Both the position numbers and the translations under genes were made by a program. The notes under the pieces are model-generated. The model was not told the DNA's origin and did not search any database. It worked only from the letters and a program-made list of their open reading frames with translations. From assembly GCA_046351115.1 (NCBI GenBank), contig JAXLZB010000001.1, positions 2,990,570-3,054,569 of the forward strand: a stretch of 64,000 nt of DNA, written 5' to 3'. Positions within the stretch are counted from its first letter, which is position 1. Each line of letters begins with the position of its first letter. Source of the stretch: Nitrospiraceae bacterium. GTDB lineage: Bacteria; Nitrospirota; Nitrospiria; Nitrospirales; Nitrospiraceae. Shown in pieces: positions 1-11,800 of this stretch.

Positions 1-113
1 CTCCTCCGATGCCCCTTTGTGATGGGTATCCTGGGCCAGTCGCGGACCAATGTGACCGGCGAAGCAGTCGGACAGGTCTCCGTCTTAGGAAAGAGCAGCT
101 AAAGGATTCAACT

Positions 114-2000
114 ATGCATGAATCTCAAGGAAGCAGTCAGTGGTGTCGAGCGTCATGGAAGTTGTCCGCTCTCTGTGCGGGTATGCTTGCGATGCTTTGG
201 TTCATGATGGCAGCTCCTCAGTCGGGGCTTGCCGGGGAGTCGCCTACTGATGTGTTCTTCCACACCCCCGGAGTTCCAAGCGGGCCGGCGGCGCCGACCG
301 CGAATGAGATTCACTATCCTCAATACGGGTCGATGGATAGCCGCCTGTTGGTGTGGTTTGTCACGCAGCAGCATACGTATTTCGGGGGCTTCGTCTTGGC
401 CTTGCCGATTTTTTCCGTGTTGCTTGAATTTTTGGGGTTGATGGCCAGGAATCCTGCCCTGTCGCTGCGCTACGACGGGTTGGCTCGGGACTTACTCAAG
501 GTCGCGCTGCTTTCTCTCTCGGTGACCGCGGTGGTCGGCAGTCTGATGCTTGGGATGTTCATCACGCTCTATCCCAGTTTCATGCAGTACATGGGCTCGA
601 CTTTCAAAGTGATGATGCCGCTCTATGCCCTCGTGTTCGTGGGCACGACGCTACTGACGATTGTCTACTACTACACGTGGAATCGGCTGTCGGCTCCCGG
701 CTTGAAGTATGGCCATGCCACGATCGGATTGCTGTCGGTGGTGTTTGGAACCTCGCTGCTGCTGCTGGCCAACGCCTGGGCTGCCTTTATGATGTCTCCT
801 GCCGGTGTCGACGCGGAGGGCCGATATCTGGGAAATCCTTGGCACTTACTGCATTCGGCCTTGTGGAATCCGCTCAATGTTCATCGTTTCCTGGCTGATA
901 TCATGTCGGGCGGTGCGGTGGTCCTGGCCTATGCCTGTTACCGGTTTTTCACCGGAAAGAATCAGGAAGAGCGGGCCTATTACGATTGGGTCGGCTACAT
1001 TTTCTTGTTTGTCACTGTCTGCGCATTGCTCCCCATGCCCTTTGCCGGCTACTGGCTCATGCGGTCGGTCTATGCTTTCCGCCAGAGCATGGGAGTCACG
1101 ATGATGGGGGGGCTTTTGACCTGGCTGTTCGTGGTCCAGGCGTTGTTGATCGGGGCGTTGTTCTTGGGGGTGAACTACTATCTTTGGCAAAGCACGGGGC
1201 GCATCCGTGGTGGCGAACGCTACCAGTCCTATTACCAGTACCTGTTATTGGCCCTGCTTGGGTGCCTGTTCATTTGGCTGACGCCCCATACGTTGTTGAT
1301 GAGCGACAGCGAAGTAAAGGCCATGGGCGGTGCGCAGCATCCAGTCATCGGCAATTATGGCGTCATGTCATCGAAGAACGGCGCAGTCAACGTCATGATC
1401 TGTATCACGACGTTGAGTTATATCCTGTACCGTCGCGCCAATCGAACCATGACTATTTCCTGGGTCAAGCGGGGCAATGTGGTGCTCGGTGTCCTCTTCG
1501 GCCTTGGCATCGTGCATATTGTGTGGTTGTCGATCTACGGTTTTTACTTGCCGGCTAGCATCAGGGTCGCTTTGTCTGGCCCGCAAGCGTTGACGACGCT
1601 AACGGTAGTGGTCTTGGGTCTGGTGCTGAACCGACAAATGCTGCGGGGAGCCACGATTCACGGTCCCGTCCAATGGGGCAACATTTCAGTACGGGGCATG
1701 GTGGGGCTGTTTGGTCTCGCGGCGGCATTTTCTTGGGTGATGGGCTTGATGGGTTATATCCGTTCGTCCGGAAGACTGGCATGGCATGTCAGCGAGTTGA
1801 TGCCCGATACGTCCCCTTGGGCCTTTACGCCGACCATCGGCTTTGCGGCCAAGATGGTGACGATCAATATGGTGGTCTTTTGGGGTGTGGTGTTTTTCTT
1901 GTTTTGGGTCTGTCAGCGTGGCCAGCGACCGGTCATGCACGAAGCAGTCGATGCTGAGAAGGAGCCGGTGTTTCTGCCGACTCCTTCGCATGAGAGCTAG
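114..2000 (+). CDS. Cytochrome bd-like oxidase subunit I paralogue (CydA-like; no CydB gene nearby)
   Basis: ORF track 9..2000; preferred start is ATG 114 with aaagga upstream. Polytopic membrane protein collinear with 5537..7471 (MMSPAGVD, WHxxHxALWNPLNxH, GYIRSSxRLxWHV). Confidence 0.85.
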   Translation: MHESQGSSQWCRASWKLSALCAGMLAMLWFMMAAPQSGLAGESPTDVFFHTPGVPSGPAAPTANEIHYPQYGSMDSRLLVWFVTQQHTYFGGFVLALPIFSVLLEFLGLMARNPALSLRYDGLARDLLKVALLSLSVTAVVGSLMLGMFITLYPSFMQYMGSTFKVMMPLYALVFVGTTLLTIVYYYTWNRLSAPGLKYGHATIGLLSVVFGTSLLLLANAWAAFMMSPAGVDAEGRYLGNPWHLLHSALWNPLNVHRFLADIMSGGAVVLAYACYRFFTGKNQEERAYYDWVGYIFLFVTVCALLPMPFAGYWLMRSVYAFRQSMGVTMMGGLLTWLFVVQALLIGALFLGVNYYLWQSTGRIRGGERYQSYYQYLLLALLGCLFIWLTPHTLLMSDSEVKAMGGAQHPVIGNYGVMSSKNGAVNVMICITTLSYILYRRANRTMTISWVKRGNVVLGVLFGLGIVHIVWLSIYGFYLPASIRVALSGPQALTTLTVVVLGLVLNRQMLRGATIHGPVQWGNISVRGMVGLFGLAAAFSWVMGLMGYIRSSGRLAWHVSELMPDTSPWAFTPTIGFAAKMVTINMVVFWGVVFFLFWVCQRGQRPVMHEAVDAEKEPVFLPTPSHES

Positions 2001-3126: not shown

Positions 3127-4041
3127 ATGGAAAACAGAGCTGTGTTGATCGGGTCCATCATTTTCGTGTTCGGATCCTTTATCGCGACGATTGTCGGGCT
3201 TGTGTACGAGTCCTATAAGGCCAAGCAGATGCGAGAATTGGCCATGTCGATTAAGACGGAAACAAAGGCGACCGTGGTGGCTGAGAAGCAGGACTTTTCC
3301 ATGTACAAAACCCTCATCGGTGATGACGGTCGGGAGATGGTGCAGATTGCTGAGGGTCCGTTCGTGATGGGGAGCCGCGACAATGACAGCGATCCGGACG
3401 AGAAGCCTGAGCACCAGGTCTACCTCAAGGCATATTTCATCGATAAGAAGGAGGTTTCTCAGGACGAATTTGATCGTTTCGCCAAGATGACGAAGCGGGC
3501 CAAACGAAAGATCGAAGTATTTGAGGACGACCCGGCCAAGCTCCTCAAGCCGGAGAACCCGGCGATCGCCGTGACGTGGGACGACGCCGAAGCGTACTGC
3601 CGGTGGGCAGGAAAGCGGTTGCCGACGGAGGCAGAGTGGGAAAAGGCCGCTCGGGGCGAAAGCAAGCGGCGATATCCATGGGGGGATGAGTTTGTTGTCG
3701 GCTATGCGAACATCGATGGAACCGAGGATGGGTTTCAGTATCTGGCGCCCCCAGGAACGTTTGAGCCAGGCCGAAGTCCATTTGGAGTTTATGACATGAC
3801 CGGGAACGTGGCTGAGTGGGTTGCCGATTTCTACGAAGAGAATTACTACCAAAAAGCGACTTATAGGGATCCGAAGGGGCCCGATCAAGGTGAGCAACGC
3901 GTTATTCGCGGTGGCTCATGGCGTGAAACCAAGCGTAATGCAAGGCCTTCAAAGCGATTTCAGGCGAAGCCCTGGCGGCACGACATTACGATTGGATTTC
4001 GATGTGCAAAGGATGTCGAACTGGAGTCGCTGGCCAAGTAA
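3127..4041 (+). CDS. Membrane-anchored FGE-sulfatase (SUMF1 / formylglycine-generating enzyme) family protein
   Basis: N-terminal TM helix, then LPTEAEWEKAARG, RGGSW and GFRCAKD motifs typical of the FGE-sulfatase fold. Confidence 0.8.
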   Translation: MENRAVLIGSIIFVFGSFIATIVGLVYESYKAKQMRELAMSIKTETKATVVAEKQDFSMYKTLIGDDGREMVQIAEGPFVMGSRDNDSDPDEKPEHQVYLKAYFIDKKEVSQDEFDRFAKMTKRAKRKIEVFEDDPAKLLKPENPAIAVTWDDAEAYCRWAGKRLPTEAEWEKAARGESKRRYPWGDEFVVGYANIDGTEDGFQYLAPPGTFEPGRSPFGVYDMTGNVAEWVADFYEENYYQKATYRDPKGPDQGEQRVIRGGSWRETKRNARPSKRFQAKPWRHDITIGFRCAKDVELESLAK

Positions 4042-4052
4042 TTGGTCGTGTC

Positions 4053-5006
4053 ATGCTGGAAAGTAAGTTCAAGATCGCGCTCCTCCTTGTTGTGCTGGCG
4101 GCTGCCAGCCTTCCTGTCATGGGCATTATCAGGGGCACTATTCTTCCCCCATTCGAGCAAGATACCGCTCATCAAGGCGCTGGTTCTGCGGAGCAGTCTT
4201 CCCAGTTCGCCTCGGATGAGGCTCCGGTCGGGGAAGAAATGGTGTTGGTTCCGGCCGGCACGTTCATAAGGGGAACGGATCAGGGCGGTTTCGATGAGCA
4301 GCCTAAGCGGGAGATTTTCCTCGATTCGTTCATGATTGATCGGAACGAGGTGACCAACGCGCAGTATGCCGCTTTTGTGGCTGCCACTGGCCATCGTAAG
4401 TCAGGCCCCCCGTCACGCTATGCGAAAAATATGGGCAAAATGCGAGGGGTGAATCAGCCGGTGGTATATGTCTCCTGGGAAGACGCCGAGGCCTATTGTC
4501 AATGGGCTGGGCGCCGATTGCCTACTGAAGCAGAGTGGGAAAAGGCCATGCGAGGAACGGATGGGCGGCTCTGGCCTTGGGGCAACGTGGAGCTTCCAGG
4601 TGGAGCGAATTGGGCGCGAATCGATGATGGTTTTGAGGCTTCGGCACCTGTCGGACAGTTTAAGAGCGATGCGAGTCCCTACGGAGTGATGGACGGGGCG
4701 GGAAATGTGCTTGAGTGGGTGGAGGATTGGTATCAGGAGAGCGCCTATGCGGAGGCTGAACCTAGAAACCCCCATAGCCCTGAACATGGGACATTTCGGG
4801 TGTTGAGGGGAGCTGGTTATACCAGCGCGGGGTCCGACCTCCGTATTACCAGCCGGAGCAAAATGATGGCCGATTTCCGGGATGAAACAATCGGCTTCCG
4901 CTGCGCACGATCAGTGGATCAAAATGAGGATTCCGGTGGGTCGGTGCGGCCTGGGAAAATCACAGGAAATCAAAGTAGTAGAGGATTAGGAACACGGCCA
5001 AAATGA
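4053..5006 (+). CDS. Membrane-anchored FGE-sulfatase family protein (tandem paralogue)
   Basis: ORF track 4002..5006; ATG 4053 avoids overlap with the upstream gene. TM helix, LPTEAEWEKAMRG, GFRCARS. Confidence 0.8.
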   Translation: MLESKFKIALLLVVLAAASLPVMGIIRGTILPPFEQDTAHQGAGSAEQSSQFASDEAPVGEEMVLVPAGTFIRGTDQGGFDEQPKREIFLDSFMIDRNEVTNAQYAAFVAATGHRKSGPPSRYAKNMGKMRGVNQPVVYVSWEDAEAYCQWAGRRLPTEAEWEKAMRGTDGRLWPWGNVELPGGANWARIDDGFEASAPVGQFKSDASPYGVMDGAGNVLEWVEDWYQESAYAEAEPRNPHSPEHGTFRVLRGAGYTSAGSDLRITSRSKMMADFRDETIGFRCARSVDQNEDSGGSVRPGKITGNQSSRGLGTRPK

Positions 5007-5008
5007 TA

Positions 5009-5037
5009 TTGACAACCATTCCAGCCAAAACTATAAT
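5009..5037 (+). promoter_or_regulatory. Sigma-70 promoter, exact consensus TTGACA-N17-TATAAT
   Basis: TTGACA at 5009..5014, 17-nt spacer, TATAAT at 5032..5037. Lies in an AT-rich intergenic region 3 nt after the upstream stop codon. Confidence 0.6.
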
Positions 5038-5166
5038 GTCGAACACTTTTGAGTTTTTTGCCATAAAAATTCCTATTTTTGCGCGCTCGCGTGAGAAATT
5101 TTGTCTAACACAGAGCAGAGAGTGTGTCAATTAGATTTACGTAACTAAACCGTTAGGAGAGTCACG

Positions 5167-5295
5167 ATGGGAACGGAAGCTGCTCAGGCTCAGGACGACG
5201 TCAAGCTTAAGATCGGCAAGATGATTTTCTATCTCACCTGCGCGATCAGTCTTTGGTTTTTCTACTGGTTCGGTGGGATTCAGTGCCCGTGCTGA
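5167..5295 (+). CDS. Micro-ORF, 42-aa single-TM peptide ending in CPC
   Basis: AGGAGA 6 nt before the ATG. Translation MGTEAAQAQDDVKLKIGKMIFYLTCAISLWFFYWFGGIQCPC. Below the ORF-track size cutoff. Confidence 0.5.
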   Translation: MGTEAAQAQDDVKLKIGKMIFYLTCAISLWFFYWFGGIQCPC

Positions 5296-5346
5296 GTCCT
5301 CACCCTTCTTTTCACGCTCAGTTGATTAAGTTGAGGGGGGTTTGAG

Positions 5347-5469
5347 ATGGGCCAAACAATTGTGTATGTGCTGGTGTCCGTCGCGATCTGCGTCGCCTAC
5401 TTCACCGCTGTCGATCACTTCCTGATGGACGCGCAGGGGTTGGACTTCTGGTATCTCTTCCGGAAGTAG
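5347..5469 (+). CDS. Micro-ORF, 40-aa single-TM peptide
   Basis: GAGGGGGG 6 nt before the ATG. Translation MGQTIVYVLVSVAICVAYFTAVDHFLMDAQGLDFWYLFRK. Below the ORF-track size cutoff. Confidence 0.5.
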   Translation: MGQTIVYVLVSVAICVAYFTAVDHFLMDAQGLDFWYLFRK

Positions 5470-5536
5470 TTTTCCGGGAGGCGGAGAGATTTTGAGGATT
5501 GTTTTTCATATTCGTGATGTATCAAGGAGGTAACCC

Positions 5537-7471
5537 ATGGGTCCGGTAACCCGCAAGAAGTTGATGTCGATTATGGCGCTCAGCGCGATGATCGGCCTCC
5601 TCCTTCTGCCTGTCCTGGTTTCGATACCTGCGCTCGCCAGTGGTGGCGGAGGAGCTGCCCCAGCCGCTCCCGCTGATTCCGCCAAGAAGGACGGTGGTGA
5701 GGCGAAGGTTGAGAAGGGTAAGGATGTGTACTACAAGACGGAGGGTATTGTCTCAGGCCCTCCGGCCCCAAAGACGACCGACGGGGAGAAGGACTATCCT
5801 CGGTACAATTTTGAGAGCCGCGTCCTCCTCTGGTTTGCTAACCAGCAGCACCTCTATTATGGAAGCTTTGTGCTCGCGGTTCCGATCTTTTGCATGATCA
5901 TTGAGTTCATGGGGGTGGTAACTAAGGATAAAGCCCTCGCCAAGCGATATGATCAATTGGCTTATGACTTTATCAAGATCAGTCTGACGGCCTACTCTCT
6001 GACGGCAATCTTGGGTGGTATTCTGATCTTCACCTTCCTGACTCTCTATCCCGCATTCTTCCAGTACCTCTCGAACATTTTCCGGCCGGTCATGCATATT
6101 TATGCGCTGACCTTCGTCGCAGAGAGCGGTACCCTCTACATTTATTATTACGGATGGGACAAGATGAAGGAGGGATTCCTTAAGTGGATCCACCTCAGCA
6201 TGTCTGTCATCCTGAACGTCATCGGCACCCTCCTGATGTTCCTGGCGAACTCGTGGATCGGCTTCATGATGTCGCCGGCCGGTGTTGATGAGCAGGGCCG
6301 ATTCCTGGGGAATATCTGGCACGTCATCCACACCGCCTTGTGGAACCCGTTGAACCTGCACCGTATTCTTGGCAACATGGCCTTCGGCGGCGGCGTCGTG
6401 GCGGCCTACGCCGCCTATCGGTTCTTGTCTGCGAAGACCGACGAAGAGCGGGCGCACTATGACTGGATGGGCTACATCGCGATGGCCCTCGGTGTGTCGT
6501 TCTTAATTCCTCTTCCTTTTGCCGGGTACTGGTTGATGCGTGAAGTCTATGCCTATCGTCAGCAGATGGGCATCACGCTGATGGGCGGTCTGCTTGCGTG
6601 GTTGTTCATCATTCAGGCAACCATGATCGGCATTCTCTTCCTCAGCACCAATTATTACCTGTGGCAAGCGTTGGGTCGGATGCGCGGCGCTGAAAAATAT
6701 CAGCGCTATATCAAGTATCTGGTGTTTCTGCTGTGCTGTGGGTACTTGGTGTTTATCACCCCGCACACGATGGTCATGACCCCGGCCGAACTGAAGGCAA
6801 TGGGTGGTCAGCAGCATCCTGTGTTGGGTAACTACGGTGTCATGTCGGCCAAAAACGGTGGCATTAACGTCATCATCACCACAACGGTGTTGAGCTTCGT
6901 CTGGTACATGCGAGGCAACAAAGTCTCGACTGTGTCGTGGGCGAAATTCGGTAACATCTTCATGGGCTGTTTCTTCTTCTTTGCATATATCAATATTATC
7001 TGGCTGGCGATTTACGGATACTACATTCCTGCAAACGTACGTGTAGGGTTATCCGTGCCCCAGGTGGCTACGACGCTCTCGTGTCTCTTCTTCATGTTCG
7101 CCTTGAACAGCGTCATGATGAAGGGCGCCAAGCAGACGGGCGCAATCGAGTGGGGTAAAATCTCTGCGCGATCACAATATGCGCTGATTATGCTTGCGAC
7201 GGCGTTTACCTGGATGATGGGCTTGATGGGCTACATCCGCTCTTCGGTCCGGTTGTTCTGGCACGTGAACGAAATCATGCGTGACAATTCTCCGTGGGCC
7301 TATACGCACACGGTCGGATTCGCTGCGAACATGATTTCCGCCAACGTGTTGTTCTTCTGGATCAGTATCATGTTCGTATTCTGGCTTGGTACGCTAGGAG
7401 CGAAAAAAGCCCCCGTTGAGGCCAAAGCTGGAGCCCCTGGGAGAGCCCCAGAACCGGCTGTCGGTCACTAA
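5537..7471 (+). CDS. Cytochrome bd-like oxidase subunit I (CydA-like; no CydB)
   Basis: 644-aa polytopic protein with an aaggagg RBS. N-terminal signal/anchor plus an Ala/Gly/Pro-rich linker. Paralogue of 114..2000. Confidence 0.9.
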   Translation: MGPVTRKKLMSIMALSAMIGLLLLPVLVSIPALASGGGGAAPAAPADSAKKDGGEAKVEKGKDVYYKTEGIVSGPPAPKTTDGEKDYPRYNFESRVLLWFANQQHLYYGSFVLAVPIFCMIIEFMGVVTKDKALAKRYDQLAYDFIKISLTAYSLTAILGGILIFTFLTLYPAFFQYLSNIFRPVMHIYALTFVAESGTLYIYYYGWDKMKEGFLKWIHLSMSVILNVIGTLLMFLANSWIGFMMSPAGVDEQGRFLGNIWHVIHTALWNPLNLHRILGNMAFGGGVVAAYAAYRFLSAKTDEERAHYDWMGYIAMALGVSFLIPLPFAGYWLMREVYAYRQQMGITLMGGLLAWLFIIQATMIGILFLSTNYYLWQALGRMRGAEKYQRYIKYLVFLLCCGYLVFITPHTMVMTPAELKAMGGQQHPVLGNYGVMSAKNGGINVIITTTVLSFVWYMRGNKVSTVSWAKFGNIFMGCFFFFAYINIIWLAIYGYYIPANVRVGLSVPQVATTLSCLFFMFALNSVMMKGAKQTGAIEWGKISARSQYALIMLATAFTWMMGLMGYIRSSVRLFWHVNEIMRDNSPWAYTHTVGFAANMISANVLFFWISIMFVFWLGTLGAKKAPVEAKAGAPGRAPEPAVGH

Positions 7472-7556: not shown

Positions 7557-8873
7557 GTGATTGAATTGATTAAAGAGGCCCTATCAATGGGGTGGCCTGC
7601 ATTAGGGGTTCTTATCGCCCTAATGTTCTATTTCAAGGCTTCCATCCAGGATCCCGCCGCCAGCAAGCGGGCGGTTTTCAAGACCTTCATCGGCATTCTC
7701 GGGGCGTTTCTCTTGTTCATGGCCATCGCCAACTACAAGATGAACTTCTTCGGTGAGTCCCGGCTCTTGCCGGTCTCTCTGGTCTTGATCACTTCCATGA
7801 CTTTTATGATGGCGGTGTATTTCACCAACATCAGTGCGCTGCTCCGTATCGGTGGATTCATGTTCTTTATCGCCGCTGCTCTGTCCGGGTATGGAAACTG
7901 GCTTCCGCAGGTGGAGGGTGGTTTTCCACCGAAGGAAGAGAAAAAAGATTTCAGCAACATGCCGCAGTCTGAATTGGCCGACGAAGGTGAGAAAATTATT
8001 TTCGGCGGTGTTGGGCAAAACAAGGTTCAGGGTGCAATCGGTAAGGGCCAGTGCCCACTTTGCCATGCATTCCATAAGGGTATGTTGGGCGAGCGTGCTC
8101 CAAATCTCGACGGGATTCCTGAGCGTGCAGATAAGGAAAGACTTGAAGATCCCCGCTATCACCGGGGCAAACCGGCGGATCGTGACTCTTCAATGAAAGA
8201 GGCATTCGCTGGCTCTGGTACTGCTGAGAACGGAATTGAGTATATTGCTGAATCCCATGCCTGCCCCAGCTGCTTCGTCGTGGCGGGGTATGGCGTGAAG
8301 GGTACGAATGACAAAGAGAGCCCGATGCCGGCTATTCACAAGCCGCCAATTTCTCTTTCCCTCCCGGAGCTTGCCGCTGTCGATACGTGGCTGTACGTCC
8401 GTGAAGGTAAGGAAGCGCCGGGCTTTGACGAAATCATCAAGGCCTATGAAAAATTCGTTCCGGAATCAGATCGGCCGAAGCCGGCTGATGCGGGAGCTGC
8501 ACCTGCAGGGGCAACCGCGTTAATGGCCGACGGAACCGAGCCGGTGGATCAGATTTTCGCCAAGGCTCAGTGCGTGGCCTGCCACACGATCCCTGGCATT
8601 GCTGGAGCCACTGGAACCATCGGTCCGAAACTGGTCGAGGGAACGACTGCTCCTCAGCGGATCAAGGACAAGGATTATAAAGGCAAGGCTAAGAGTGGAC
8701 CTGAATACATCATGGAGTCGATCGTGGAACCTAGCGCGTTCGTCGTGAAGGGTTTCCCGGACAACACTATGCCGAAGGTGTTCGGTCAGAAGCTCAGCGC
8801 CGGTGCCTTGAAGAAGATTGTCGAGTACCTGTCTCAGGTACAGGAGGGGAAAGAGCCACCCAAGGCTTCGTAG
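7557..8873 (+). CDS. Membrane-anchored dihaem cytochrome c
   Basis: GTG start after aggagg. About four N-terminal TM helices, then two CxxCH motifs (CPLCH, CVACH). Confidence 0.8.
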   Translation: MIELIKEALSMGWPALGVLIALMFYFKASIQDPAASKRAVFKTFIGILGAFLLFMAIANYKMNFFGESRLLPVSLVLITSMTFMMAVYFTNISALLRIGGFMFFIAAALSGYGNWLPQVEGGFPPKEEKKDFSNMPQSELADEGEKIIFGGVGQNKVQGAIGKGQCPLCHAFHKGMLGERAPNLDGIPERADKERLEDPRYHRGKPADRDSSMKEAFAGSGTAENGIEYIAESHACPSCFVVAGYGVKGTNDKESPMPAIHKPPISLSLPELAAVDTWLYVREGKEAPGFDEIIKAYEKFVPESDRPKPADAGAAPAGATALMADGTEPVDQIFAKAQCVACHTIPGIAGATGTIGPKLVEGTTAPQRIKDKDYKGKAKSGPEYIMESIVEPSAFVVKGFPDNTMPKVFGQKLSAGALKKIVEYLSQVQEGKEPPKAS

Positions 8874-8930: not shown

Positions 8931-9968
8931 ATGAAAGCATTAATGTCAGTCGGCGCCCTGATCGGTGTCGTCGGACTGCTCATGTTGATCGGCATGATCT
9001 TCGGAGTGGTCCCATCGAACACGGTCAGGTTGGTTGAGGGCTACATGCCCATGCAGATGTTGAGCGAGCTGGCGATTTTCGTCGCCGGTTTCACTGGTAT
9101 CAGCTATCTGCTCAACTCGATGGGGATGCCCCTTCCTCGATTTTGGCAAGGCATCCTCTTTTGGGTTTTTGTACAGATGTATTTGAAGTTTCGGGTGTAT
9201 CCCCCTATCCCATTCAGCGTGCGAGCGATGTATGGGACTGTGATCATGGTGGCCGTATTCATGTGGGTGTCGGCAAACGAAGAAGATTGGAAGAAGTTCA
9301 AGCAGCCAATCTATAACGTTCTGGATGCCAATACCGGCTTCCACAAGGCATTGCGCACCATGTACCTCGTTCTCTTGCCGATTTTGATCGGCGGCTTCTC
9401 TTTTCTTTCCATGAAGCCGAGCATCGATGAGCCGATCGAATTGCGTACGGTGCACCCGGCCCCTCCGGCGAGCACCAAGGTGCACGGGAAGACCTACACC
9501 CTGCAGACTTCGCAGAACCCCTATCGTGTCAACCCAGAGGGGAAGTACGATCAGGAATACAGCAACAAGATGATCGTCGAGCAGTCAATGGGACGCCTGA
9601 TGGCCCCGAATGCCAACCCTTGGGACGAAAAGGCTGAAGGGTATCTGAAGTATGTGCGTGAAGGCGGTGAGATTTTCTTCCAGAACTGCCACTTCTGCCA
9701 CGGTGACAATTTGAATGGACGCGGTCTCCATGCGTTCGCCTTCAATCCGATTCCGGCGAACTTTACCGACCCAGGGACGATCGCTCAGCTCCAGGAAACC
9801 TTCATCTTCTGGCGTGTGGCCAAGGGGGGCATCGGCCTTCCCAATGAAGGCTTCCCCTGGGCCTCCGTGATGCCGCCATGGGAACAGCACCTGACCACGG
9901 ATGAAATCTGGAAGGTCATTCTGTTCGAGTACTGGCACACGGGCTACTATCCACGTACTTGGGACTAA
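8931..9968 (+). CDS. Membrane-anchored monohaem cytochrome c
   Basis: About five TM helices, then a class-I-like domain with CHFCHGDNLNG. RBS aaagggaga. Confidence 0.8.
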   Translation: MKALMSVGALIGVVGLLMLIGMIFGVVPSNTVRLVEGYMPMQMLSELAIFVAGFTGISYLLNSMGMPLPRFWQGILFWVFVQMYLKFRVYPPIPFSVRAMYGTVIMVAVFMWVSANEEDWKKFKQPIYNVLDANTGFHKALRTMYLVLLPILIGGFSFLSMKPSIDEPIELRTVHPAPPASTKVHGKTYTLQTSQNPYRVNPEGKYDQEYSNKMIVEQSMGRLMAPNANPWDEKAEGYLKYVREGGEIFFQNCHFCHGDNLNGRGLHAFAFNPIPANFTDPGTIAQLQETFIFWRVAKGGIGLPNEGFPWASVMPPWEQHLTTDEIWKVILFEYWHTGYYPRTWD

Positions 9969-10015
9969 TCGCGAATCTTACAAACAACCTGGGAGAACAG
10001 GTGGTGAGGTTAACA

Positions 10016-11800
10016 ATGAGGAATCTGAGGAAGAAAGTGAAGCCGGCGTTGATCGTCGGTGCCGCCGTGGGGGCTTTGCTCTTCACGGCAAGCATGGGGA
10101 TGGTCGCTCACGCTGCCGATGTCCCTGAAGGCTTCAAATCTGGAGAATTGGCACCGGCACCTCCTGCTGACATGATTGAAGCAGGTAAGCGTGTCTATTT
10201 CACGAAGTGTGTCTGGTGTCATGGCGTGGATGGAGCCGGTGATGGCCCTGGTGCCGACCGCCTGTGGCCCCGTCCGCGCAACTTCAATCAGGGTACGTTC
10301 AAGATTCGCCACACGGCGAGTGGTGAGTTGCCCTTGTTCAACTACAATGAGAAGGCTGTCGACTCTGGCAAGAACGACTTGCTGGATACGGTGACTCACG
10401 GTTTGCCTGGCTCGGCTATGCCGCCGTGGGAAGGTATCTTGACTGAGGAACAGCGTATCCAAGTCTTGGCCTATGTGACGACTCAGCTGGTCAAGGATCG
10501 GAAGTTTACGGACAAGGCTTCTGAAACTCAGACGGTGCTGCAGCTCAGCACGTTGAAGCCTTCTGAGCCAACTGAAGAAAGCGTGAAGCGCGGTGGCGAA
10601 CTGATCGTTGAGAAGAAATGTATTGAGTGCCACGGCCTTGAGGGGCGCGGCGATGGCAACGCCTTCAACCTGAAGGACGACTGGGGCTTTTCCATCCAAC
10701 CGGCGAACTGGCACAAGTGCTGGAACTTCCGGGGAAGCAGGCAGGATCCTTACAACGTTCGGAACATTTTCCGAACGTTCTCGACCGGTCTGAACGGTAC
10801 GCCAATGCCGTCCTTCGCCGACAGTACTTCGGTGGAGGAGCGCTGGAACATTGCGAATTTTGTAAATTCGTTGTGCGAGCGCGACGGTGAAGGCAAGCCC
10901 CTCGGTATCGATCCTCTGACGGATAAGCCGAAGATCAACTTCGTAGTGCCGTCCTCTCCGGTCGAAGGGGATATTTCCGACGATCCTGAGAGTGAAATGT
11001 GGAAGAAGCAGGGGCGCCGTTACGTTGCGATGGGCGGTCAGATCACCCACAAGCCGCGTAACTTCGTCAATCGTATCGACGACGTCTGGGTTAAGTCTCT
11101 CTACAACGAGAAGCAAGTGGTGTATCTGATTCAGTGGGACGATCGGACCAAGAGCGTGGCAGAGGGCAAGTTGCCCTGGGCTCCGACTCAAGTCAACGTC
11201 GAAAACTTTGGTGTGAAGGAACAGGCACCGAAGACTGGCGAAGAAGGTTCCATTGCCGCTGCTCAGAACAATTACACCACGTACAACGACGCGATTGCGT
11301 TCCAATTCCCGATCAAGTGGCAGGAAATTCCCGCTCCGTTCAAGCCGCGGTACCTCTGGGGCGATGCGAAGTTCAATGCCGACATCATCAAGTGGGAAGC
11401 TGACGGGTCCCTGCGTTCCTTCAAGGGAACGGGATGGGATCAGGACTTTGAAGAGCGCGATGACTTCGAAGAGAAGATCAAGCTCATGAAGTCTGAGTGG
11501 AAGAACGGCCGTTGGACAGTCATGATCTCCCGTCCGCTTACTGGTAGTAAGGACGATTATGACGAGTACACCCGGTTTGATGTCGGGAAGTACATTCCGA
11601 TGGTCTTCTTTGCTTGGGATGGTCACAATGGTGATGCCGGACGTAAGATGGCCGTGTCGGCCTTCTACTACACGATTCTGGAACCGCCGATCCCTCGTGA
11701 GGTCTATATCTATCCGGCGATCATCGCCGTCGGTGTGGTCATTCTCGAGGGTTGGGTGCTGACTCGTCGCGCCAACAGGAAGAAGGGCAAGAGCCTGTAG
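10016..11800 (+). CDS. Dihaem cytochrome c fused to an EB_dh / NxrC-type haem-b domain, with a C-terminal TM anchor
   Basis: ORF track 9959..11800 (TTG); ATG 10016 follows ggtgagg. Motifs CVWCHGVDGAGDG and CIECHGLEGRGDG. The C-terminal part is collinear with 28507..29460 and 35232..36074 (AFQFP, IKWEADG, GRWTVMISRPL, VFFAWDGHNGDAGRKMAVS). Confidence 0.8.
   Translation: MRNLRKKVKPALIVGAAVGALLFTASMGMVAHAADVPEGFKSGELAPAPPADMIEAGKRVYFTKCVWCHGVDGAGDGPGADRLWPRPRNFNQGTFKIRHTASGELPLFNYNEKAVDSGKNDLLDTVTHGLPGSAMPPWEGILTEEQRIQVLAYVTTQLVKDRKFTDKASETQTVLQLSTLKPSEPTEESVKRGGELIVEKKCIECHGLEGRGDGNAFNLKDDWGFSIQPANWHKCWNFRGSRQDPYNVRNIFRTFSTGLNGTPMPSFADSTSVEERWNIANFVNSLCERDGEGKPLGIDPLTDKPKINFVVPSSPVEGDISDDPESEMWKKQGRRYVAMGGQITHKPRNFVNRIDDVWVKSLYNEKQVVYLIQWDDRTKSVAEGKLPWAPTQVNVENFGVKEQAPKTGEEGSIAAAQNNYTTYNDAIAFQFPIKWQEIPAPFKPRYLWGDAKFNADIIKWEADGSLRSFKGTGWDQDFEERDDFEEKIKLMKSEWKNGRWTVMISRPLTGSKDDYDEYTRFDVGKYIPMVFFAWDGHNGDAGRKMAVSAFYYTILEPPIPREVYIYPAIIAVGVVILEGWVLTRRANRKKGKSL

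Follow-up and report, generated by a model that had tools for sequence, protein, structure and literature searches.

A 64,000-nucleotide (nt) stretch of a Nitrospiraceae genome (contig JAXLZB010000001.1; referred to here, at its full length, as the window) carries the gene for a 644-amino-acid (aa) cytochrome bd-like membrane subunit. Immediately upstream of this gene lie two very short open reading frames (ORFs), ORF-A and ORF-B, which are the subject of this report. An initial annotation, made from the sequence alone, had proposed that each of them follows a strong Shine-Dalgarno (SD) site 6 nt before its ATG and encodes one hydrophobic helix. Re-examination of the letters agrees with that description in its coordinates, its start signals and its single helix per peptide.

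5155 to 5160, plus strand: SD site of ORF-A, AGGAGA, 6 nt before the ATG
5167 to 5295, plus strand: ORF-A, 42 aa, MGTEAAQAQDDVKLKIGKMIFYLTCAISLWFFYWFGGIQCPC, one transmembrane helix with an invariant C-terminal Cys-Pro-Cys (CPC)
5333 to 5340, plus strand: SD site of ORF-B, GAGGGGGG, 6 nt before the ATG
5347 to 5469, plus strand: ORF-B, 40 aa, MGQTIVYVLVSVAICVAYFTAVDHFLMDAQGLDFWYLFRK, one transmembrane helix with a conserved tail

The predicted products have masses of 4.8 kDa (ORF-A) and 4.6 kDa (ORF-B), and in the window the spacers measure 51 nt between A and B and 67 nt between B and the oxidase gene. Each peptide contains a single hydrophobic 19-residue window, with Kyte-Doolittle values of 1.57 for A and 2.31 for B. 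AlphaFold2 models of the monomers give A as one long helix over residues 3–39 (predicted local distance difference test, pLDDT, 77) and B as a helix over residues 2–30 followed by a short helix over residues 36–39 (pLDDT 91), and carry little information beyond these helices. The first 14 kb of the window contain 173 ORFs of at least 25 aa. As a lone 40-codon ORF is not significant in such DNA, the case is carried by the comparison with other genomes.

The peptides had also been called unannotated, which proved incorrect. Exact matches are deposited as hypothetical proteins, namely U0231_17820 (A) and U0231_17825 (B), from a Nitrospiraceae metagenome-assembled genome that has both identical sequences. 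Nitrospira moscoviensis likewise has records of hypothetical proteins for A (ALA60037/WP_274519477) and B (ALA60036/WP_274519476). Some Joint Genome Institute (JGI) records of A and B relatives bear evidently spurious names (YidC insertase, DUF106).

Conservation and selection

Judged from their substitution patterns, A and B are protein-coding genes under strong purifying selection. A scan with the oxidase against one genome per species (GTDB) gave ~580 relatives, of which the best 80 were fetched. The comparison set consists of 81 loci, 80 of them from species-level genomes (Nitrospira or other Nitrospiraceae, with an oxidase 88–94% identical to that of the window) and one from a metagenome contig. 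When the DNA upstream of each oxidase gene was searched by tblastn, the order A, B, oxidase was found in 81/81 of these loci. SD sites are kept before both ORFs in the other genomes. The spacers differ among loci in both sequence and length, that between A and B ranging from 43 to 158 nt.

At the protein level, CPC followed by the stop codon ends A in 82/82 sequences, the window counted. The core of A is represented by 82 distinct DNA sequences, and 18 of its last 30 residues are invariant while 23 are at least 90% conserved. The invariant residues of B are Ser11, Phe19, His24, Met27, the block Gln30-Gly-Leu-Asp33, Trp35-Tyr36 and Arg39. Asp23 is present in 80/81 sequences and position 28 is always Asp or Glu. 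Searches of protein databases with single sequences returned 47 clusters for B and 12 for A, and a profile of A returned 466.

Most of the variation in A and B is held by third codon positions. The pooled ratio of nonsynonymous to synonymous differences (pN/pS) is 0.09 for the A core and 0.27 for B, against 0.99–1.75 in the two shifted plus-strand frames; pS in the A and B comparison is saturated, at ~0.75. ORF-A has a pN of 0.068, not far from the 0.034 of the strongly conserved oxidase. Among all six frames, the proposed one alone contains no stop in any locus (82/82 for A, 81/81 for B). Synteny by tblastn and selection on the frames were the checks put forward with the original description, and both find the frames maintained upstream of the oxidase. 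The claim of genuine, conserved, single-pass membrane micro-proteins is well supported by these 81 loci, by the open frames and by pN/pS ratios well below 1. One locus (L084, European Nucleotide Archive contig_1542) has frameshifts throughout, with A, B and the oxidase gene each split. This looks like an uncorrected long-read assembly, and is unlike pseudogenes.

The oxidase cluster and its predicted transcription unit

The surroundings of A and B comprise a promoter and leader, the oxidase gene with three further genes, and a third micro-ORF on the opposite strand, ORF-C.

4960 to 5064, minus strand: ORF-C, 34 aa, MAKNSKVFDIIVLAGMVVNIILAVFLILYYFDFL, one transmembrane helix
5009 to 5037, plus strand: operon promoter, perfect sigma-70 consensus TTGACA-17 nt-TATAAT (12/12), transcript start placed near 5044
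5038 to 5166, plus strand: leader (5' untranslated region), ~125 nt, poorly conserved except for a GTGTCAA block at 5124 to 5130
5537 to 7471, plus strand: 644-aa cytochrome bd-like (CydA-like, OR-N type) membrane subunit, partial PF01654 match with E 1.3e-20
7557 to 8873, plus strand: 438-aa membrane-anchored c-type cytochrome, cytochrome c domains with CxxCH motifs, orthologue of NITMOv2_3642
8931 to 9968, plus strand: 345-aa c-type cytochrome, orthologue of NITMOv2_3641
9959 to 11800, plus strand: NxrC-like protein (alt_NxrC_2), two PF00034 domains and PF09459, TIGR03477, orthologue of NITMOv2_3640

An identical 12/12 consensus precedes A by 125–178 nt in each of the 78 loci whose upstream sequence is long enough. 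Leader conservation was taken from an alignment of 79 loci. Within the leader there is a weak hairpin with a T-run at 5076 to 5097. No promoter-like plus-strand site is predicted between A and the oxidase gene, and the sole terminator-like site in that interval is a weak hairpin inside ORF-B. An Rfam scan of 4900 to 5600 gave only a chance microRNA match and no known leader or riboswitch. Because the promoter lies upstream of A and none is predicted internally, A and B appear to be the first two cistrons of a unit that also contains the oxidase, the two cytochromes c and the NxrC-like protein. The original placement of A and B beside the bd-like oxidase gene is therefore retained, and they now sit at the promoter-proximal end of its predicted transcription unit.

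The 644-aa subunit is the orthologue of NITMOv2_3643 of N. moscoviensis, known as bd-like_3, and the N. moscoviensis locus in the comparison set coincides exactly with NITMOv2_RS16745, which is the same gene. It falls in the OR-N class of Murali et al. and is a 14-helix bd-like protein; among PDB entries it has one relative, a CydA, at weak similarity (E 2e-6). The 438-aa cytochrome gene follows the oxidase gene in the same synteny in two further loci that were inspected (L001, L091). The NxrC-like protein combines two cytochrome c domains with a dimethyl sulfoxide (DMSO)-reductase type II heme-b domain, and its true start codon may lie downstream of 9959. In N. moscoviensis the corresponding genes have been described as bd-like_3, a dihaem cytochrome c (3642), a monohaem cytochrome c (3641) and an alternative NxrC (3640), all among the top 40 transcripts, with 3643 at rank 37, 3642 at 29, 3641 at 39 and 3640 at 17 (Mundinger et al., PMC6606698). 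Among the rows listed in the N. moscoviensis RNA-seq table, none corresponds to the tags or coordinates that the micro-ORFs should have. The window cluster also matches the cluster named TO_1 in Ca. Manganitrophus, which comprises a bd-like clade I oxidase, two cytochromes c and a periplasmic cytochrome b or alternative NxrC, and which is the most expressed terminal-oxidase-like cluster of that organism.

Nitrospira genomes have 4–7 bd-like paralogues each. The possibility that the window gene is Nide0901/bd-like_2, the paralogue with proposed copper ligands, was rejected, as it is the orthologue of bd-like_3/TO_1, a type associated with nitrite oxidoreductase (NXR). Since the copper-ligand proposal concerns Nide0901/bd-like_2, there is no literature link between bd-like_3 and copper. 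Another paralogue, bd-like_4 (663 aa, 9 to 2000, plus strand), lies ~3.5 kb upstream in the window and is 51% identical to the 644-aa protein. No micro-ORF is found directly upstream of bd-like_4 in the locus inspected for this (L001). Between the two bd-like paralogues there are always two paralogous genes with formylglycine-generating enzyme (FGE)-sulfatase domains, a gene for a DUF3047 protein and a 130-aa ORF.

The published four-gene descriptions of the bd-like_3/TO_1 cluster mention no micro-ORFs, and literature searches by locus tag and for CydX together with Nitrospira found no mention of the A and B peptides. Searches for cryo-electron microscopy of NXR or bd-like complexes found no structure of the bd-like_3/TO_1 complex, and a PDB search found no solved structure of this oxidase type. 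To our knowledge, the complex has never been purified or solved.

Topology and candidate roles of ORF-A and ORF-B

The orientation of both peptides was deduced from the distribution of charges and from natural length variants. ORF-A has K-x-K-x-G-K on the N-terminal side of its helix and no charged residue C-terminal of it, and long-form paralogues of A carry an N-terminal tail of ~35 hydrophilic residues. These features point to an N-in, C-out orientation of A. In four loci (L055, L078, L080, L082) ORF-B is 67–74 aa long and has an extra N-terminal helix, with a GKK or AKSK loop before the conserved helix. One of these, L078, has no start codon at the position of the short B, so the long form must be used there. 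The two-helix variants and their loop place the conserved tail of B, V-D-H-x-L-M-D-x-Q-G-L-D-x-W-Y-L-F-R-K, on the outside. Both A and B are thus inferred to be N-in, with the CPC of A and the conserved tail of B predicted to lie at the periplasmic side. In both peptides the periplasmic half of the helix is almost invariant and the cytoplasmic half variable. This suggests that the functional surface faces the periplasm, the side on which the heme domains of the partners lie. A 103-aa sequence on a 1.2-kb JGI contig (P0244) appears to join A and B by read-through: a Trp codon stands where A has its stop, and the spacer keeps the frame. This was seen once only and could be due to a sequencing error; were it genuine, it would argue against the same-orientation topology of A and B.

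The most probable role, on the strength of gene order and selection, is that of dedicated components of the bd-like_3/TO_1 complex, whether as permanent small subunits or as assembly factors. A and B would be translated as single-pass inner-membrane micro-proteins from the same very strong promoter as the rest of the module, whose partners would be the CydA-like 14-helix subunit, the two membrane cytochromes c and the NxrC-like heme protein. They would insert with the N-terminus in the cytoplasm, bringing the CPC of A and the D-H-x-x-M-D...Q-G-L-D-x-W-Y of B to the periplasmic membrane surface. This periplasm-facing interface would be the working part, either packing against the oxidase and the cytochromes or holding a cofactor or metal. 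The initial annotation had likewise proposed an accessory subunit or assembly factor of the bd-like complex. Perfect synteny and strong purifying selection are as expected for such a role, and to that extent the proposal is upheld; a confinement of the A family to this operon is not found.

Several observations weigh against a dedicated role. Three distant clusters (L088, L089, L092) have the same order of oxidase, cytochrome, cytochrome and NxrC-like genes, with an oxidase 43–47% identical to that of the window. No A, B or ORF-C homologue is found in them and there is mostly no room for micro-ORFs, which means that a TO_1-like complex can exist without A and B. Neither peptide matches any Pfam or NCBIfam family, even at E ≤ 10, or any known small oxidase subunit in the PDB. 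In addition, a long form of A (61–68 aa; for example P0012, P0323 and P0293) retains both the helix and the CPC and is encoded alone. It occurs at L083 279 to 473, at L096/L097 7001 to 7198 and at L098 175 to 372, and its N-terminal tail is rich in Pro, Ser, Arg and Glu. The neighbourhoods are unrelated, on contigs that include ones of 152 and 180 kb, and contain no bd-like gene, B or ORF-C nearby; the neighbours vary by contig and are a 79-aa two-helix ORF or an SCO4226-like 57-aa protein. As the long form is found away from oxidases, the link of the A family to this operon is not a strict one, and the fold of A could act, or be supplied, without it.

The same absence of A, B and ORF-C was seen in stand-alone relatives of the oxidase (L085–L087) and in a complex-III-linked bd-like cluster (L094). 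Two 43-aa ORFs upstream of the oxidase gene in L088 were considered as analogues of A and B and rejected, being unrelated and not hydrophobic. A metagenome scan seeded with the long-form sequence P0012 returned one further standard locus, L091, and nothing else, and no paralogues of A or B were found within the 64-kb window. By its distribution, the trio of A, B and ORF-C is specific to the tightly conserved Nitrospira-type cluster, and the fold of A is not exclusive to it. In L092 (9830 to 11358), genes for COX2 and COX1 of a heme-copper oxidase follow directly after the NxrC-like gene.

A different role is conceivable, at a clearly lower probability, in which A and B are transient assembly or metal-delivery factors. 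By analogy with other motifs, the CPC of A, perhaps with the help of His24 and Met27 in B, would be a ligand for a soft metal of the Cu(I) type or act as a redox dithiol, and the peptides would hand metal to the oxidase or its cytochromes, or mature them. The initial annotation had suggested copper handling by the CPC tail. Such a role is favoured by the invariance of CPC in 82/82 sequences, its location at the very end of the peptide, where a periplasmic position is predicted, and the conservation in B of His24, Met27, Asp33, Asp23 (80/81) and the acidic position 28. The stand-alone long form of A, which keeps both helix and CPC, also fits a trans-acting factor. Precedents for the motif, which apply by analogy, come from several systems: Cox11/CtaG employs a CFCF close to the membrane for Cu(I), a transmembrane CPC occurs in P1B-ATPases, HCH forms the end of CTR1, and the CPC of Mia40 is redox-active. 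Conversely, neither A nor B has a Pfam or NCBIfam match to a metallochaperone family, Cox11, Sco, PCuAC and CcoS included, and the published copper-ligand proposal belongs to the bd-like_2 paralogue rather than to this oxidase. Periplasmic cysteines may also simply form a disulfide, and the very high conservation of A along its full helix (pN 0.068) better suits a structural partner in tight packing. Co-transcription without a shared function is a less likely explanation again. A and B would then be small membrane proteins with functions of their own, for example in regulation, stress or ion leakage, or would partner other bd-like paralogues. The long forms of A in unrelated neighbourhoods and the distant TO_1-like clusters without A and B are consistent with this, and the 4–7 bd-like paralogues of each Nitrospira genome offer possible alternative partners. 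However, adjacency and order are strict in 81/81 loci, under one promoter with the oxidase and with synonymous sites saturated. The spacers between A and B and between B and the oxidase gene drift in both length and sequence, with the genes always in the same place.

With a strong promoter before them and the first large gene after them, A and B could be leader peptides, i.e. regulatory upstream ORFs whose translation itself tunes expression of the oxidase while the peptides are functionless. This is very improbable, as the amino acids are conserved over the whole helix and tail, including 18 of the last 30 residues of A, and pN/pS is far below 1. The products are hydrophobic transmembrane helices, no conserved terminator or anti-terminator structure or Rfam match accompanies them, and the spacers are not conserved. 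The least credible explanation is that A and B arose by chance as ORFs, within a leader that is conserved but codes for nothing. Short ORFs are common here, but variation concentrates at third positions, the proposed frame alone is open in every sequence (82/82 for A, 81/81 for B) and 466 protein clusters match the profile of A. Both the leader-peptide and the chance-ORF explanations were rejected on the selection data.

Among known small proteins, the closest resemblance of dedicated components such as A and B would be to the single-helix subunits CydX, CydS and CydH of canonical bd oxidases (PMC4325964; bioRxiv 10.1101/2021.01.16.426971). Like CydX/AppX, CydS and CydH/CydY, A and B are single-helix peptides of the 30–40-aa class that are encoded with a CydA-family oxidase, are easily overlooked by annotation and would be expected to stabilise the complex or its hemes. 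Unlike CydX, whose gene lies in the cydAB operon and typically downstream of cydB, the genes of A and B stand upstream of the oxidase gene and no cydB is present. They also come as a pair, accompanied by the antisense neighbour ORF-C. CydX is called poorly conserved in the literature, whereas A and B are far more conserved and have invariant motifs with Cys, His and Met that are predicted to face the periplasm. Their partner is a 14-helix OR-N bd-like protein with cytochromes c, not the quinol oxidase CydAB. Neither A nor B matches YbgT_YccB (CydX/AppX) in Pfam at E ≤ 0.01 or E ≤ 10, or in NCBIfam, and a profile search against all PDB chains gave nothing for A and only chance matches for B (E ≥ 0.33). 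Membership of A and B in the CydX/CydS/CydH class is not borne out, given the lack of a family match and the upstream position of the genes. The resemblance is one of functional analogy only.

Other comparisons are looser. At the level of motifs, A resembles Cox11/CtaG, the chaperone of CuB copper in heme-copper oxidases, in its one transmembrane anchor, a CxC predicted to be near the outer face and linkage to an operon of the terminal-oxidase type. Cox11 has a soluble immunoglobulin-like domain of ~100 or more residues, and ORF-A has no such domain. CcoQ and CcoM of cbb3 oxidases, subunit IIa of ba3 and PetG, PetL, PetM and PetN of the b6f complex are further cases, of the 'picket-fence' kind in respiratory and photosynthetic complexes, of several single helices of ~30–40 aa encoded with a large cofactor-bearing membrane core. 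They are packed around their core, as A and B may be, and are unrelated to A and B and belong to other enzyme superfamilies. A and B are probably new, uncharacterised accessory proteins of the broad single-helix type that respiratory complexes have. Compared with the published four-gene descriptions, the Nitrospira-type cluster gains micro-ORFs. Should the complex include two or three micro-subunits, expression, purification or modelling without them may fail. Nitrospira are the main nitrite oxidisers of soils, waters and wastewater plants.

A more speculative extension, drawn by analogy and given little credence, is that the CPC of A and the D-H-x-x-M-D of B form or complete a metal centre at the outer face, possibly a Cys2-His-Met copper site. 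If so, subunits of 4–5 kDa would contribute a redox or catalytic site, a novel route by which an enzyme derived from cytochrome bd could take up electrons from cytochrome c or NXR in organisms without heme-copper oxidases. If the complex does contain the micro-proteins, their invariant Cys, His and Met motifs are concrete targets for asking whether the enzyme carries a metal besides heme.

ORF-C and two predicted facing promoters

ORF-C is intact in 78/78 loci with an identical stop position. Its codon-position entropies of 0.225, 0.093 and 0.638 show third-position wobble, and its pN/pS is 0.13 vs. 1.1–3.2 in four other frames. SD-like sites of ORF-C are also conserved. It occurs on 795 contigs, and public records, among them one from N. 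defluvii, list it as a hypothetical protein. Pfam and NCBIfam searches found no family for it even at E ≤ 10.

The coding sequence of ORF-C carries the –35 and –10 hexamers of the operon promoter on its opposite strand. Hexamer bases that fall at wobble positions of ORF-C never vary, which indicates a double constraint on the overlap of promoter and ORF-C. The locus illustrates clearly how a coding sequence can hold a consensus promoter that reads the other way. A second, candidate promoter lies in the operon leader, on the strand of ORF-C.

5102 to 5130, minus strand: candidate ORF-C promoter, –35 TTGACA at 5130 to 5125, 17 nt, TG-n-TAGACA with the hexamer at 5107 to 5102

The minus-strand TTGACA is the sole conserved block of the operon leader. 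It is kept in 76/78 loci, mostly 64–70 nt upstream of the ORF-C start, with TATTCA, TAATCA or TATCAA (TG-n-TAWTCA) 17 nt beyond it. This promoter, with a predicted start near 5095, probably serves ORF-C. With predicted starts near 5044 on the plus strand and near 5095 on the minus strand, the two promoters face each other and their transcripts would overlap by ~50 nt. Such a layout is of a kind known to cause transcriptional interference, and antisense transcripts could interfere here. If the metal centre proposed above were real, the facing promoter of ORF-C would add a built-in transcriptional switch to it.

On its other side, ORF-C meets the second FGE-sulfatase-domain gene (4002 to 5006, plus strand), which in the window has a C-terminal extension of ~30 aa and a convergent overlap of 47 nt with ORF-C. 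In other loci the overlap is only ~6 nt, as in L001, where the FGE-sulfatase gene lies at 4889 to 5800.

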